Of a stretch of DNA of 64,000 nucleotides, positions 30,794-54,139 are shown piece by piece. The stretch is from Candidatus Altimarinota bacterium (GTDB taxonomy: Bacteria > Patescibacteriota > Gracilibacteria > UBA1369 > GCA-2718715): the NCBI GenBank assembly GCA_041242255.1, contig JBESAV010000001.1:608001-672000 (forward strand), written 5' to 3'. Each line of letters opens with the position of its first letter. Position 1 is the first letter of the stretch. The position numbers and the translations under genes are program-made. The notes under the pieces were generated by a model. It searched no databases, was not told the DNA's origin, and was given only the letters and a program-made list of their open reading frames with translations.

Positions 30794-31372
30794 CTACTTC
30801 ACCGCCAAAGTCTTCAAAGCTTCCACCATTTCAGCAGATTGAGCCTCAGTATCAAGCTCATCAAAAGCTCCAGTTGCTAGCCAAGCTTCATTTTCAGCTA
30901 CCACCAAAGCTTGCAAGTAAACTAACACATCTCCTTCTAGTTTTCTTTTTCCAGTAAACTCTACCAACAATCCATTACTAACACTTCCATTTGCTACAGT
31001 AGTAAATCTTTCTCGACCAACTTCTTCAGCAATCAGCAGGGATTCTTCGTTATCTTCCCAAACCGACTCATATGTTTTTTCTAGGCCGCTACTCTCATCA
31101 ACTGAAAAACTCTCCACTACTATATTAGGTGTAAAAAAAGCATCCTTATCATCTTGAACTAAAACAAGCTTAGCACTGCTTTTGTATCTTTCCTGAACCA
31201 GCTCTCCATCCAGCAGGTCCCAATTTTTTGGATATTGCATCCTAAACTCTTCAGTATCATACAAATCATAACTCTCAATAGGTAACTCATTATAGCTTAC
31301 CAATGCCTCATCCGCTCCACCACATCCACTCAGAAAAACCACGCCTACTAATAAAGTCAAAAATTTTCTCAT
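30794..31372 (-). CDS. PsbP/DcrB-like lipoprotein
   Basis: LSGC lipobox; FRMQYPKNW, FTPNIVV. Confidence 0.75.
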   Translation of the reverse strand: MRKFLTLLVGVVFLSGCGGADEALVSYNELPIESYDLYDTEEFRMQYPKNWDLLDGELVQERYKSSAKLVLVQDDKDAFFTPNIVVESFSVDESSGLEKTYESVWEDNEESLLIAEEVGRERFTTVANGSVSNGLLVEFTGKRKLEGDVLVYLQALVVAENEAWLATGAFDELDTEAQSAEMVEALKTLAVK

Positions 31373-31442
31373 TTCATAACATTAAAACACTCATATTATA
31401 CATGAGTAATACTCAATTTACAGAAAATCAAAGGCTCAACCT

Positions 31443-31604
31443 CTAAGCCAAACCTTTGATTCTATCCATCAAGTTTTCCGCTTGGTCATAGTCTTCACCT
31501 GCAACCGCCTCATTGTATTGTGCTCCAAGTAAAGAACTCTGAAAATTTTTATTGAGTTCGAAGTTATTATCACCCTCGAACACTATTCTGAAGTAAATAT
31601 CCAT
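31443..31604 (-). CDS. 53-aa UVR (UvrB/UvrC motif) microprotein
   Basis: MDIYFRIVFEGDNNFELNKNFQSSLLGAQYNEAVAGEDYDQAENLMDRIKGLA; AVxxEDYxxAxxLxDRI motif; own promoter. Confidence 0.7.
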   Translation of the reverse strand: MDIYFRIVFEGDNNFELNKNFQSSLLGAQYNEAVAGEDYDQAENLMDRIKGLA

Positions 31605-31618
31605 AAGGTAATATTAAA

Positions 31619-31659
31619 TTAGCACTCCAGATTATAGAGTGCTAATTTGAATTCGTCAA
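31619..31659 (-). promoter_or_regulatory. Perfect CIRCE (31619-31645) overlapping a sigma70 promoter
   Basis: TTAGCACTC-N9-GAGTGCTAA; minus-strand TTGACG-17-TATAAT with the -10 inside the CIRCE spacer. Confidence 0.93.
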
Positions 31660-31669
31660 TATTTTAACT

Positions 31670-32335
31670 CTATCTACTTTCAATTATCTTATCTACCAAA
31701 CCATACTTTTTAGCAGCTTCAGCTGGCATGAAGTTATCTCTATCTGTGTCTTTCTCAACTTGAGAAATCTTCTGACCAGTGTGCTTAGCAATAATCCCAT
31801 TCAATCTATCTCTAGTCTTAAGAATGTGCTCAGCATGGATAGATATATCAGATGCTTGACCCTGAGCTCCACCAAGAGGTTGATGGATCATTACTTCAGC
31901 GTTTGGTAAGCAGTACCTCTTTCCGGCAGCACCACCACATAGAAGTACAGCTCCCATAGAAGCTGCAATCCCCATACAAACTGTAACTACATCGGGTTTA
32001 ATCAATTGCATAGTATCATATATAGCCAACCCAGCAGTCACATGCCCACCCGGACTTTGTATATACATAGTTATATCTTTCTCAGGATCTTCTTGTTCCA
32101 AAAATAAAAGCTGCGAAACAATACTATTAGCAACTTGATCATTTATTCCACTTCCCAAAACAATAATTCTATCTTTTAAAAGTCTTGAATATATATCGTA
32201 TGCCCTCTCTCCATTTGCACTCTTTTCAATAACCATTGGAGTCAGAACAGTATTTGTCACCGGATTAGCACTTCCATGACCACTATCATTCATAGAAAAT
32301 CCACTCCCATTATTATGTACAGATGTTAGTACCAT
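31670..32335 (-). CDS. clpP: ATP-dependent Clp protease proteolytic subunit
   Basis: [22 protein letters not shown] (Ser), MIHQP (His), DTDRD (Asp); start uncertain. Confidence 0.97.
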
Positions 32336-32462
32336 ATTTTGTTCATTTAAATCTAACAACAAACATTATAATTCCCATATCTAAAAAAGCCAGCCATCCC
32401 ACATTTTTAAGAAACTTAAAGAATTACTTTCATGATCCTAAAGCCAAAACCCAACTTTAATA

Positions 32463-32654: not shown

Positions 32655-34136
<1,482 letters not shown>

Positions 34137-34253
34137 TATAGGAGATGCCACACTCTAGTAATAGAAGTGTCAGGTATGATTGAACGGTAGACTTCATGTC
34201 TACGAGACATTCAAGTAATTATTTCTCTGTTGTGCACTGATTGTTAAAACATT

Positions 34254-34281
34254 AAAACTACCCTAATAGGTAGTTTTTTTT
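34254..34281 (+). terminator. Intrinsic terminator after 16S rRNA
   Basis: AAAACTACC-CTAATA-GGTAGTTTTTTTT. Confidence 0.8.
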
Positions 34282-34320
34282 GTGTTTTATGTTATAATTA
34301 TAAGATTTAAATAAATCTTC

Positions 34321-35151
34321 ATGGTTATGATGCCATCATATAGTGATTTCGAAAGCAATGAAGGAGCTAACCTAAGTCTAGATAACCAAAGTCTTGAGCC
34401 AGGAACAGAACTTCTAGATCAAGCAGATATTAATTTTCTGATGGAAGAGATAGTATCAGTATTAGACGATCCAAAGATAAATAGCCAAGCAATATTCTTA
34501 AACAACACCCCTCAAACAAAAGGTGAACTATATGAGTACACTGAAACTATATATGGTATTGCTCAGCAAGCATTAATAAATGATTCTGACCTACTAGGAA
34601 ACGCTCAGCTTTTTAGTCTTTTAGATAAATGTACTCAGATGCTTAAGCAAAATCTACCAGAATCAGAGCACAAAAACTATCAGACTGCACTTGTTGAATC
34701 TTATATGATAGGACTCCAGGCGGGATTATTTCTAGAGGAATCTACAGATACAAACCAGACTGAAGAATCACTAGATTTTCAAGATCATTTTTTCTCTCCT
34801 GAAGAAGTAGTTAGGGCTATGCAAATGTATGAAAGTTTTGGTCTAAAAAGAGATGGTGCAATCATCGATAGTATTAATGAGATTAATGTAATTGGGGCTA
34901 ATGAGTTAAGAACACTAGGCGAAACAATTTATAAATCGTATTCCACTGCACTAGAAAGAGGTTACCGTCCAACTCCGCTAGACTACGAACTACTATCCGG
35001 GATATCAAAAAACCTCAATATACTATCGAGGTCTAATAATTATAACTATGCTAATGATATTCTAATTCAAGCTGAGCTTGGTGGAATAGCAGAGCAGACT
35101 AGTAAAGCTACAGCTAAGGTACTAAACCAAGATGCTAACTCTTCTTCCTAA
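34321..35151 (+). CDS. Acidic hypothetical protein between 16S and 23S genes
   Basis: 276-aa ORF with TGtTATAAT extended -10 upstream. Confidence 0.75.
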   Translation: MVMMPSYSDFESNEGANLSLDNQSLEPGTELLDQADINFLMEEIVSVLDDPKINSQAIFLNNTPQTKGELYEYTETIYGIAQQALINDSDLLGNAQLFSLLDKCTQMLKQNLPESEHKNYQTALVESYMIGLQAGLFLEESTDTNQTEESLDFQDHFFSPEEVVRAMQMYESFGLKRDGAIIDSINEINVIGANELRTLGETIYKSYSTALERGYRPTPLDYELLSGISKNLNILSRSNNYNYANDILIQAELGGIAEQTSKATAKVLNQDANSSS

Positions 35152-35536
35152 AGATTTCATTATAAAAATCAACTGAATTAGCTTTGAAGATAAGTCTCCA
35201 AGTAAAGAAAACTAAGACAAAAGTTATAAGAATAAATGCTTTTTTGATAGGTAAAAATATAGCTAGTATAGGATAACTATATCCACAGAAAGCACAGAAG
35301 ATAAACACCCCTATTAAACTCATATAAGCCTCAGATACCTCATCTTTTTCTGCTTTATCTTTATTATACCTTTTATAGGCTTGGTAATTTCTCCGAGCAA
35401 ACTCAAAGTATCCAAGTATTACAGTAGTATTTGCTAAAACCATCAAGCCAACCCAAAACCAGTCATTTTGCATACAATCAATAAGAGTCATATACATGCC
35501 TTCAGGCCCAGTCATCATCCATTCAATAATACCCAT
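35135..35536 (-). CDS. Small 3-TM membrane protein resembling a sensor (ethylene-receptor-like) TM domain
   Basis: N..VILGYF in TM1, VFIFCAFCG in TM2. Confidence 0.55.
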   Translation of the reverse strand: MGIIEWMMTGPEGMYMTLIDCMQNDWFWVGLMVLANTTVILGYFEFARRNYQAYKRYNKDKAEKDEVSEAYMSLIGVFIFCAFCGYSYPILAIFLPIKKAFILITFVLVFFTWRLIFKANSVDFYNEIFRKKS

Positions 35537-35649
35537 TAATAAATATTAAATTATTCCTAAAATTTATAACTCAAAAACTCTAATCCACAAAGGATTTAAA
35601 GCCTCAATAAAGTCAATAGCCTATACAAAAAACACCACTATTTTATAAG

Positions 35650-35727
35650 TGGTGGGCGATGGAAGACTTGAACTTCCGACCTCTACATTATCAGTGTAGC
35701 GCTCTAACCAGGCTGAGCTAATCGCCC
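35650..35727 (-). tRNA. tRNA-Ile(GAT)
   Basis: Cloverleaf, anticodon GAT, CCA end. Confidence 0.97.
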
Positions 35728-35752
35728 ATGCTTAATCATCAGAATATAAAAG

Positions 35753-35829
35753 TGGTGGAGCATAACGGAGTCGAACCGTTGACCTCCTGCGTGCAAAGCA
35801 GGCGCTCTAGCCAGCTGAGCTAATGCCCC
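35753..35829 (-). tRNA. tRNA-Ala(TGC)
   Basis: Cloverleaf, anticodon TGC, G3:U70, CCA end. Confidence 0.97.
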
Positions 35830-35946
35830 ACAAATCGGTCTTTAATGATCAAAGCACGGTCATCTTACCAATAATCTTTTAAACTGCAAGTAAATTTTCA
35901 TAAAAATTACATATATAATGAACCTATAATATTTCACATAACAGTA

Positions 35947-36180
35947 ATGAGAATTTTACTATCTATATTAGGTATCATATCTGGTCTTTTAATAATTAAA
36001 TATAGAGAACCTATATATAGATTCACTGGAAAGTTTGGTTTTGCAGAGAAATATTTTGGGAGCGGAGGCACTCTTTCCTTCTATCTAATATTCGGATCTT
36101 TTTTAGTCATTTTATCTATAGTTTATGGCTCAGGATTTCTAGAAAATATAATCAGTAAGCTCTTTTCTAGGTTTTTCTAA
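35947..36180 (+). CDS. Small 2-TM membrane protein
   Basis: 77 aa, two hydrophobic helices flanking FTGKFGFAEKYFGSGGT. Confidence 0.75.
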   Translation: MRILLSILGIISGLLIIKYREPIYRFTGKFGFAEKYFGSGGTLSFYLIFGSFLVILSIVYGSGFLENIISKLFSRFF

Positions 36181-36277
36181 AAAAGTCACAAAAAAGGTTT
36201 GACTTACTCTTTCGCCTGAGTATAATGCCTATGCTTTCAAACAACAGAGAGACGGAAGGAAGCCAAGATCATTGACA
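36179..36277 (+). promoter_or_regulatory. 23S-5S rRNA promoter/leader (copy 2 of duplicated rrn promoter)
   Basis: TTGACT-16-TATAAT, boxA-like GATCATTGACA; 28-bp and 58-bp blocks identical to the 16S promoter. Confidence 0.9.
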
Positions 36278-36379
36278 GAAAGATGTGAAAAGTAATTTTA
36301 CTGAAATAACGATAGTAATGATAATTAAAAGACACCAAAAACAAGTACTTGTTGAAACAAGTGCTGGTTAAAACTGTAA

Positions 36380-39333
<2,954 letters not shown>

Positions 39334-39479
39334 ACAGAAACCTCAGCTCAGAGATTTACTTATAAGATCTTGTAGGTAAAAACTTTGTGCTGACATTTAA
39401 CCAGCTCTTGTCTTAACAAGTTGAGTTAAAAACTATTACTTTTCACAATCTTTCTTCAATACTAAGAAGAGAGATTTTA

Positions 39480-39588
39480 CCTTGGTGCTTATAGATGGTG
39501 GGGTACACCTGTTCCCATTTCGAACACAGAAGTTAAGCCACTATTCGCCGATGATACTGTTCAACGGTAAAGTAGGGCGGCGCCAAGG
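39480..39588 (+). rRNA. rrf: 5S rRNA (short)
   Basis: CACCTGTTCCCATTTCGAACACAGAAGTTAAGC, AAGTAGG; terminal CCTTGGTG/CGCCAAGG stem. Confidence 0.95.
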
Positions 39589-52123: not shown

Positions 52124-52150
52124 TTAGCACTTCAGGTTGAGGAGTGCTAT
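52124..52150 (+). promoter_or_regulatory. CIRCE operator upstream of groES
   Basis: TTAGCACTT-N9-GAGTGCTAT (2 mismatches to consensus). Confidence 0.88.
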
Positions 52151-52193: not shown

Positions 52194-52490
52194 ATGTCGA
52201 AACTTATACCATTAAGTGACTTCATTGTTGTAAAGCCATCAGGTGGTCAAGAAAAAACAGCATCTGGTATTTATATTCCAGATTCAGCAAGTAAAGAGAA
52301 ACCACAAGAAGGTGAAATTCTTGCAGTTGGACCAGGTCGAAAAAATGAGGACGGTTCAAGACAATCAATGGATCTAGAAGTAGGGGACATAGTTATGTTC
52401 AAAAAATACGCCCCAGATGAATTCAAAAAAGACGGACAAGATTTACTTGTTTTGAGAGAAACCGATGTTATCGCAAAACTACAAAAATAA
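52194..52490 (+). CDS. groES: Co-chaperonin GroES
   Basis: PL.D, TASGIYIPD, AVGPG. Confidence 0.98.
   Translation: MSKLIPLSDFIVVKPSGGQEKTASGIYIPDSASKEKPQEGEILAVGPGRKNEDGSRQSMDLEVGDIVMFKKYAPDEFKKDGQDLLVLRETDVIAKLQK

Positions 52491-52504: not shown

Positions 52505-54139
<1,635 letters not shown>

Follow-up and report, generated by a model that had tools for sequence, protein, structure and literature searches.

The window analyzed in this report, a stretch of 64,000 nucleotides from Candidatus Altimarinota bacterium (contig JBESAV010000001.1, positions 608,001 to 672,000 of the forward strand), contains an unannotated open reading frame of 53 codons (here termed the 'microORF', with product P0001) that starts with ATG, occupies positions 31443..31604 of the minus strand in the open reading frame list, and lies behind the clpP gene under a perfect copy of the heat-shock operator CIRCE (controlling inverted repeat of chaperone expression). 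The genome is represented by a single contig of 1,000,477 bases, with a G+C content of 36% and a completeness of 98.5%. Its clpP gene (31670..32362, also on the minus strand; 230 residues) is the upstream neighbor of the microORF, is identified by a match to Pfam CLP_protease (E 2.6e-86), and displays 75-79% identity to the clpP genes of six genomes of the same family. An initial annotation of this DNA had placed the frame behind clpP with the same sequence, and had described it as an unannotated gene under CIRCE control; the gene indeed looks real, and its control is read from the sequence.

The control region consists of a -35 hexamer (TTGACG, 31654..31659, minus strand, from a promoter scan) positioned 8 nucleotides upstream of the CIRCE repeat, a -10 hexamer (TATAAT, 31636..31631, minus strand) contained within the 9-nucleotide spacer of CIRCE, and the operator itself (31619..31645), which by pattern match has no mismatch to TTAGCACTC-N9-GAGTGCTAA, the sequence that we take to be the CIRCE consensus. 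The resulting promoter (TTGACG-17-TATAAT, 31659..31631, minus strand) agrees with consensus at 11 of 12 positions, and its -10 element lies inside the operator just as the initial annotation had stated. The promoter scan of the window returned three matches, compared to 5.7 expected from shuffled sequences, and was not enriched over them; the evidence for this promoter is therefore its coincidence with CIRCE, and not the scan. A leader of 14 nucleotides that begins with TTTAAT (31605..31618, minus strand) separates CIRCE from the ATG codon. At the opposite end of the frame, a terminator-like hairpin and T-rich run (31426..31461, minus strand), found by a terminator scan (31449..31433) and by RNA folding, overlaps the stop codon. 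The predicted fold of the region from 31625 to 31420 (206 nucleotides) contains a 17-pair stem at that 3' hairpin, and the transcript as a whole folds better than all 200 of its shuffles (z -3.28). The start codon falls within a 5' stem of the same predicted fold (31560-31615, minus strand), an arrangement that is compatible with a temperature-sensitive leader. No Shine-Dalgarno motif precedes the microORF; similar motifs were found in front of 34 of 589 long open reading frames of the genome, which is below the frequency at random positions (7.8%), although the 3' end of the 16S rRNA still reads CCTCC. With the motif so little used in this genome, its absence here is uninformative, and it was dropped as an argument against translation.

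Searches of protein collections identified ten further distinct homologues of P0001, with lengths of 53, 54, 57, 61 and 67 residues and identities of 48-77%, two of which come from contigs of approximately 1 Mb and carry the JGI name 'hypothetical protein'. The product can be divided into an aromatic and conserved N-terminal part (residues 1-11), a variable linker, and a helical hairpin (helices 19-35 and 39-52). A 9-row alignment of the family contains 15 invariant columns, 12 of them within residues 25-50 of the hairpin, with L25, L26, G27, Y30, E32, E37, Y39 and M46 among the invariant hairpin positions; the length differences between homologues are all located in the linker and amount to whole codons, and the second helix shows conservative exchanges. 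The codon score of the microORF in its frame (0.555) lies within the range of windows from real genes of this genome (0.412 +/- 0.164), as compared to -1.18 +/- 0.49 for off-frame windows, none of which (0 of 3000) reaches the observed value; the other two frames of the microORF score -0.71 and -2.06. On these sequence patterns the microORF is probably a real, selected protein-coding gene, and from family conservation, codon usage and the predicted fold we infer that it is translated into a hairpin protein resembling the UVR motif. A comparison of P0001 with 41 genomes recovered this genome alone, the four additional rows being at chance level (E 0.23-0.68). No longer proteins containing the family were found, which is weak evidence, and a limited keyword search of the literature found no publication on the microprotein.

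The window contains two CIRCE sites with three or fewer mismatches, where shuffled sequences would lead one to expect 0.01: that of the microORF (31619-31645) and a second with two mismatches (52124..52150, plus strand) located 44 nucleotides upstream of groES. The groES (52194-52490) and groEL (52508-54139) genes were identified from tblastn matches to relatives, and the operator of the microORF is, as claimed, the better of the two copies. Across the entire genome, CIRCE sites at the same threshold precede dnaJ (three mismatches), the microORF (none), groES (two), a clpC gene for 859 residues (none) and dnaK (one), such that the microORF possesses one of the two perfect copies. The other (G000:C1:688878-688904, where G000 denotes this genome) lies approximately 86-90 nucleotides upstream of the start of the long clpC gene, and orthologues of that gene in three relatives (denoted, like those below, by G numbers), namely G004, G007 and G008, have a CIRCE with one or two mismatches at the same distance (fetched loci L069, L070 and L072). 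The full-length orthologues checked in G002, G003, G006 and G009 display no CIRCE with two or fewer mismatches in the 200 nucleotides upstream. The genome encodes HrcA (PF01628, 85.3 bits, G000:C1:955589-955984), and both partner genes that the initial annotation had presupposed, hrcA and clpC, are therefore present. By analogy with established HrcA and CIRCE biology, we infer that the operator at the microORF is an HrcA-repressed control site, from which heat or unfolded-protein stress would induce the microORF together with groESL, dnaK, dnaJ and clpC.

The history of this control region emerges from the same locus in related genomes, where a second, ClpC-like AAA+ ATPase gene (referred to here as 'clpC2') is found behind clpP. 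CIRCE sites were mapped in 20 relatives, and the loci were annotated with the heat-shock proteins of this genome by means of tblastn and open reading frame maps. The clpP gene could be located in six of nine genomes of the family, and four of those six carry clpC2 behind it. In G004, G006 and G007, clpP is followed in turn by CIRCE, a ClpC-like ATPase of 759-773 residues, and a lipoprotein of 197-198 residues; in G005 clpP, CIRCE and the ATPase appear in the same order up to the end of the locus, which falls within the ATPase gene. As in the window, a 16S rRNA gene adjoins clpP in G006. Two further relatives, G002 (L035) and G009 (L032), have neither a CIRCE within three mismatches nor the ATPase, and their lipoprotein gene follows approximately 100 nucleotides after clpP. 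Among metagenome contigs from JGI, 19 loci contain the combined pattern of CIRCE and TTTAAT, eight of which again correspond to clpP, CIRCE and clpC2. The remainder comprise five groES loci, four dnaK loci (one of which ends after three codons and was assigned through its identical leader) and two in which dnaK lies further downstream; none of the 19 contains the microORF. Over relatives and metagenome loci clpC2 encodes 735-773 residues, and the lipoproteins that follow it (after a gap of 57-61 nucleotides in the relatives), or that directly follow clpP, are homologous and 194-199 residues in length. The syntenic clpC2 proteins contain the domains AAA, AAA_2, AAA_lid_9 and ClpB_D2-small. In every relative whose DNA was read, the slot behind clpP holds clpC2 or is empty, and the synteny of clpP, CIRCE and microORF that the initial annotation had hoped for is not seen among them.

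The correspondence between the two control regions extends to fine detail. The spacing between the TTGAC element and CIRCE in G004, G005, G006 and G007 equals that seen here, and TATAAT or TATACT is found within the CIRCE spacer before clpC2 in the relatives, following the same design. The interval from CIRCE to ATG is 14 nucleotides and starts with TTTAAT in this genome, in G004, G006 and G007, and in six of the eight metagenome loci (L037, L040, L043, L044, L052 and L054); it is 13 nucleotides in L047 and L048 and 7 in G005. The start codon of the microORF thus stands at the position of the clpC2 start codon. A long ClpC is encoded in every genome of the family (frames of 749-874 residues), a shorter second paralogue is found only in G004, G005, G006 and G007, and this genome has the 859-residue long form as its one ClpC-type ATPase. 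Because promoter, CIRCE, leader, start position and gene order all match those of the relatives, the CIRCE behind clpP first served clpC2, and comparison of the sequences makes it nearly certain that the microORF originates at the slot of a second ClpC-like ATPase gene that was lost in this lineage. The initial annotation had named descent from a longer gene, originally served by the CIRCE, as one outcome that would undo its proposal. For the origin of the control region and start codon this is what was found, whereas the microgene, with its homologues and its codon usage, does not look like decaying debris.

As judged from these gene maps, the clpC2 slot is a hotspot of loss, and since G006, which belongs to the same genus as G002 and G009, retains both CIRCE and clpC2, the loss happened more than once. 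One metagenome copy, L047, has an in-frame stop at clpC2 codon 95, with the remainder readable in the same frame, and differs at 10 positions in the first 1250 or so bases from L048, in which the frame is open; the stop reflects a recently formed pseudogene or else a mistake in sequencing. The tripeptide [ILV]GF is missing from all eight clpC2 sequences inspected for it (L026:2663-4942, L027:2687-5008, L028:2625-4943 (minus), L037, L040, L043 and L052 are listed as lacking it), and a short ClpC-type M-domain is present; clpC2 may be a ClpP-independent unfoldase or disaggregase despite adjoining clpP.

How the body of the microORF relates to clpC2 is less direct. Between the ATG of the microORF and that of the lipoprotein gene, similarity to the DNA of relatives is confined to the TATAAT region of the lipoprotein gene (85-88% over 24-27 nucleotides in G007 and G004; E 0.002-0.004). 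The simplest derivation, in which the microORF would represent the first 55 or so codons of clpC2, was rejected, as a hidden Markov model (HMM) of the N-terminal region was non-significant in all members and hhalign returned a P of 0.53. For one pair, the N-terminal motif of P0008 and residues 30-64 of the G006 clpC2 protein gave a Smith-Waterman score of 46-47, which was matched by 3 of 200 shuffles. An in-frame fusion of the clpC2 N-terminus to the M-domain hairpin would fit both local matches, yet is post hoc and unproven.

The second of those matches concerns the predicted fold. AlphaFold2 models of six family members contain helices at residues 19-35 and 39-52 (pLDDT, the predicted local distance difference test, of 87-91), which form an antiparallel hairpin with an acidic-aromatic turn, as in the UVR motif. 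Residues 1-18 are predicted without a strand and with low confidence (block pLDDT 52-63); of the N-terminal hydrophobic strand that the initial annotation had proposed, the sequence is present and conserved, and the strand itself is not recovered. Comparison of the family profile with that of clpC2 by hhalign places the best match at the UVR motif of the M-domain (P 0.0025-0.005). With an HMM built from that clpC2 region, family members obtain 3.9-11.4 bits, values that shuffled sequences reach in 0, 0, 0, 1 and 5 cases of 400, while the corresponding HMM from the long ClpC gives scores that are above most shuffles, yet below those of the clpC2 model for eight of nine members. In a library-wide search the family profile matches two multi-UVR proteins (E 7.8e-5 and 4.2e-4; their Pfam UVR matches have E 8e-24 and 3.6e-10). 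In the ESM Atlas, the top match (0.91) is to a cluster with UVR on 38% of its members, and the nearest clusters consist of proteins of 49-70 residues with PF02151 on 15-38% of members. A search of PDB sequences with the family profile gave no matches at E<=10, Pfam has no family on the microprotein, and neither Pfam nor NCBIfam places a Clp family on the 53-residue product, the single NCBIfam row (E 0.012) being a chance-level match to an unrelated Plasmodium family. Foldseek rows for McsA and for MecA/ClpC (E 1.9-4.8) were non-significant and were not used. The hairpin proposed for the C-terminus is thus recovered as a model, and its resemblance to UVR is supported by four indirect tests, although Pfam does not call the motif.

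The long ClpC of this genome (859 residues) contains a Pfam UVR motif at residues 466-496 and an invariant IGF tripeptide, the motif through which such ATPases dock on ClpP. A complex of ClpC residues 1-545 (8-row alignment) with the microprotein (9-row alignment) was predicted in three runs and compared to three controls. The score was 0.64, as against 0.00 for the best of the controls; with a calibration that applies roughly here, 58 of 80 solved complexes attain this mark, as do 2 of 110 mismatched pairs. Between the runs, agreement extends to 75% or more of the contacts, with a partner pLDDT of 67 or above. The predicted interface brings residues 21-46 of the microprotein into contact with ClpC residues 28-35, 66-71, 89-91 and 125-134 of the N-domain and 479-491 at the UVR tip of the M-domain; the conserved residues 1-11 of the microprotein fall outside it. 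ClpC residue E35 aligns with E32 of the Bacillus subtilis protein. In a study of Staphylococcus aureus ClpC, the two phosphoarginine pockets of the N-domain (pArg1 and pArg2; E32 and E106) are described as anchoring the M-domains in an inactive resting state (PMC12583610), and the same study describes MecA as binding both pockets together with the M-domain's tip, the occupation of these sites activating ClpC (PMC12583610). Matches to MecA (PF05389), to an ATP:guanido phosphotransferase (a McsB-type kinase) and to ClpS numbered zero each in this 98.5%-complete genome.

These elements can be assembled into a mechanism. When HrcA repression is lifted on heat, the hairpin microprotein would be made; the free hairpin would dock on the ClpC N-domain in the vicinity of G33-T34-E35-H36, where B. 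subtilis ClpC has the glutamate of its pArg1 pocket, and would also contact the M-domain at its tip. By mimicking the M-domain it would compete for the N-domain anchor and loosen the resting state, and ClpC would be shifted towards the active hexamer in a genome that yielded no MecA, McsB or ClpS. The separate parts of this proposal differ in their standing. We favor, at a little short of even chances, a minimized descendant of clpC2 that has been kept as an HrcA-controlled small protein, possibly acting in trans as a regulator of ClpC. That the microprotein binds ClpC, as the structure prediction suggests, is a tentative proposition, somewhat less secure than the former, and that it activates ClpC is doubtful. 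Similarly doubtful is the fullest version, in which the gene of a two-ring AAA+ unfoldase was reduced to a free, M-domain-like decoy that frees ClpC on heat shock and takes the place of activators of the MecA or McsB type. The complex prediction with ClpC that the initial annotation had suggested did pass with clean controls, and its idea of a regulator of ClpC retains that much; the adaptor role in substrate delivery and the link to ClpP itself stay conjectural.

Several results count against the idea of a retained, ClpC-directed descendant of clpC2. A blastn comparison of the body of the frame with clpC2 genes found no DNA similarity outside of the lipoprotein promoter region, and comparison of the clpC2 N-terminal region with the microprotein was non-significant, with shuffles equaling or exceeding the real score in 44-314 of 400 cases; because the body cannot be aligned, only the control region and start position are orthologous, and descent of the body from clpC2 is unproven. 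Pfam UVR (PF02151) matches none of nine members at E<=10, the microORF is not among the three UVR matches of a genome-wide scan at E<=1, Foldseek against the PDB returned nothing at E<=0.001 (the best row having an E of 1.5), and the family profile also matches a TPR protein, such that the hairpin signal is partly generic. The complex prediction was made with our own alignments, so that its calibration holds roughly; its pass may stem from solved contacts, between the ClpC N-domain and M-domain or MecA, that the model has retained, and as a modeling result it is a sign of likeness and not of binding. The family profile recovers this genome alone among 205 genomes of the order, being absent from the other 204, and a search of JGI metagenome contigs and GTDB representatives with a 3-row alignment gave no confirmed family locus. 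The homologues are known as entries of protein databases, which are biased towards intact copies, and the relatives with clpC2, along with G002 and G009 with neither gene, evidently cope without the microprotein.

The microORF could instead be an inert relic, namely a still-open stump of clpC2 left by a deletion, perhaps transcribed from the CIRCE promoter that remained behind and without function, the apparent conservation of which reflects short divergence and the bias of protein databases. Genes have clearly been lost from this slot: CIRCE and clpC2 are both missing from G002 and G009, and L047 has a stop at codon 95 where the near-identical L048 is open. The family is also restricted to one narrow lineage. 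Members that have diverged to 48-57% identity nonetheless keep the 15 invariant columns, mostly in the hairpin, and vary in length by whole codons; codon usage is gene-like, the CIRCE has stayed free of mismatches and the promoter retains 11 of 12 matches, a terminator-like hairpin coincides with the new stop codon, and the hairpin fold is predicted with high confidence. We consider an inert relic unlikely. Less probable again is that the CIRCE promoter was kept for heat-inducible transcription of the lipoprotein gene, with the microORF as a mere leader, translated or not. That gene does lie 70 nucleotides downstream on the same strand, and the gap of 57-61 nucleotides after clpC2 would allow co-transcription in the relatives, but a strong hairpin and T-run separate it from the microORF, its own TATAAT region is the sole stretch downstream of the microORF ATG with conservation in G004 and G007, the lipoprotein gene of G002 and G009 manages without CIRCE, and the conserved amino-acid pattern of the frame would be left unexplained.

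The good folding of the 206-nucleotide transcript, and the enclosure of its start codon in a 5' stem, would suit a product other than a protein, whether a small RNA under HrcA control or a leader that works as an RNA thermometer. This appears very improbable, given that substitutions between homologues are conservative at the protein level, insertions and deletions comprise whole codons, codon usage is gene-like in the one frame and not in the others, and the terminator stem supplies much of the folding energy. A more serious competitor, although still unlikely, accepts a real HrcA-controlled small protein and assigns it a partner other than ClpC, such as ClpP, DnaK/GroEL, HrcA, or aggregates bound via the aromatic N-terminal part. 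The predicted ClpC interface does exclude the most conserved N-terminal residues (1-11), hairpins of the UVR type serve as generic modules for protein-protein contacts, small stand-alone proteins with UVR features occur in other phyla, and the complex prediction covered one partner, ClpC. That prediction passed with clean controls, however, and both the ancestry of the gene and its regulon point to the Clp system.

If the microORF is functional in this manner, it would be a clean case in nature of a microprotein that arose through reduction of a gene and not de novo, a product of 53 residues having taken over the start codon and control region from a chaperone gene of 760. It would also hint at how ClpC might be activated in small genomes in which no known adaptor (MecA, McsB or ClpS) is found, through the same N-domain and M-domain surfaces that serve as the on/off switch in recent S. 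aureus structures. Even if the microORF is inert, the locus records the stepwise loss of a heat-shock ATPase in four stages (intact gene, nonsense codon, stump and clean deletion), and carries the warning that a perfect operator before a tiny open reading frame can be inherited from a lost gene.

Several features of the neighborhood deserve separate mention. The downstream gene (30794..31372, minus strand, 192 residues) encodes a lipoprotein, as indicated by a signal peptide with its Cys and a weak LPAM_1 match, and is preceded by a promoter-like region (31381..31410, minus strand) in which TATAAT (31400..31395) lies inside a short palindrome and is followed by GTGTTTTAAT. The palindrome (ACTCAT ... 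ATGAGT, 31389-31407, minus strand) encloses the TATAAT element, and a similar imperfect palindrome together with the following GTGTTTTAAT is kept in G004 and G007; judging from its sequence, it may be the operator of another regulator. The rRNA genes are spread out (window 32655-39588), with 2.2 kb between the 16S (32655-34136) and 23S (36380-39333) genes; that interval contains an open reading frame of 276 residues (34321-35151) together with two tRNA genes on the opposite strand.

When placed beside known systems, the locus is most readily recognized as part of the CIRCE/HrcA regulon, with which it shares a perfect inverted repeat over the promoter, the presence of hrcA, and further copies before groES, dnaK, dnaJ and clpC; it differs in that the operator, a predicted HrcA site, serves a gene of 53 codons and not a chaperone or protease gene. 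For Hsp100 genes, regulation by HrcA is known from small genomes (PMC5138195). With the clpC2 genes of relatives it has in common the promoter, CIRCE, leader, start position and neighbors, and its hairpin is slightly nearer to the clpC2 UVR motif than to that of ClpC itself (in eight of nine members), whereas the microprotein lacks the AAA+ module, Clp_N and D2, has approximately 7% of the length, and has a body with no detectable DNA homology. The likeness to MecA-type adaptors and to the ClpC resting state lies in the predicted contact with the pArg1-pocket region of the N-domain and the M-domain's tip (PMC12583610). Unlike MecA, the microprotein has no evident substrate-binding part and shows no relation in sequence or fold (the Foldseek row for MecA/ClpC having an E of 4.8); its binding is predicted, and PF05389 is absent from the genome. 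It shares with the UVR motif (PF02151) the helical hairpin and acidic-aromatic turn, and its language-model features lie near those of small, partly UVR-bearing clusters, although every member falls below the Pfam threshold. Another small protein linked to ClpC is NblA, a cyanobacterial helix-loop-helix protein that interacts with ClpC; it differs in targeting phycobilisomes, structures that one would not expect in this organism. Judged by its sequence, the microprotein falls outside the Clp ATPase, MecA and (at the Pfam threshold) UVR families. The operator is an ordinary CIRCE, and what is unusual is its history, in which a chaperone gene was cut to 7% of its length and its control region was left intact.

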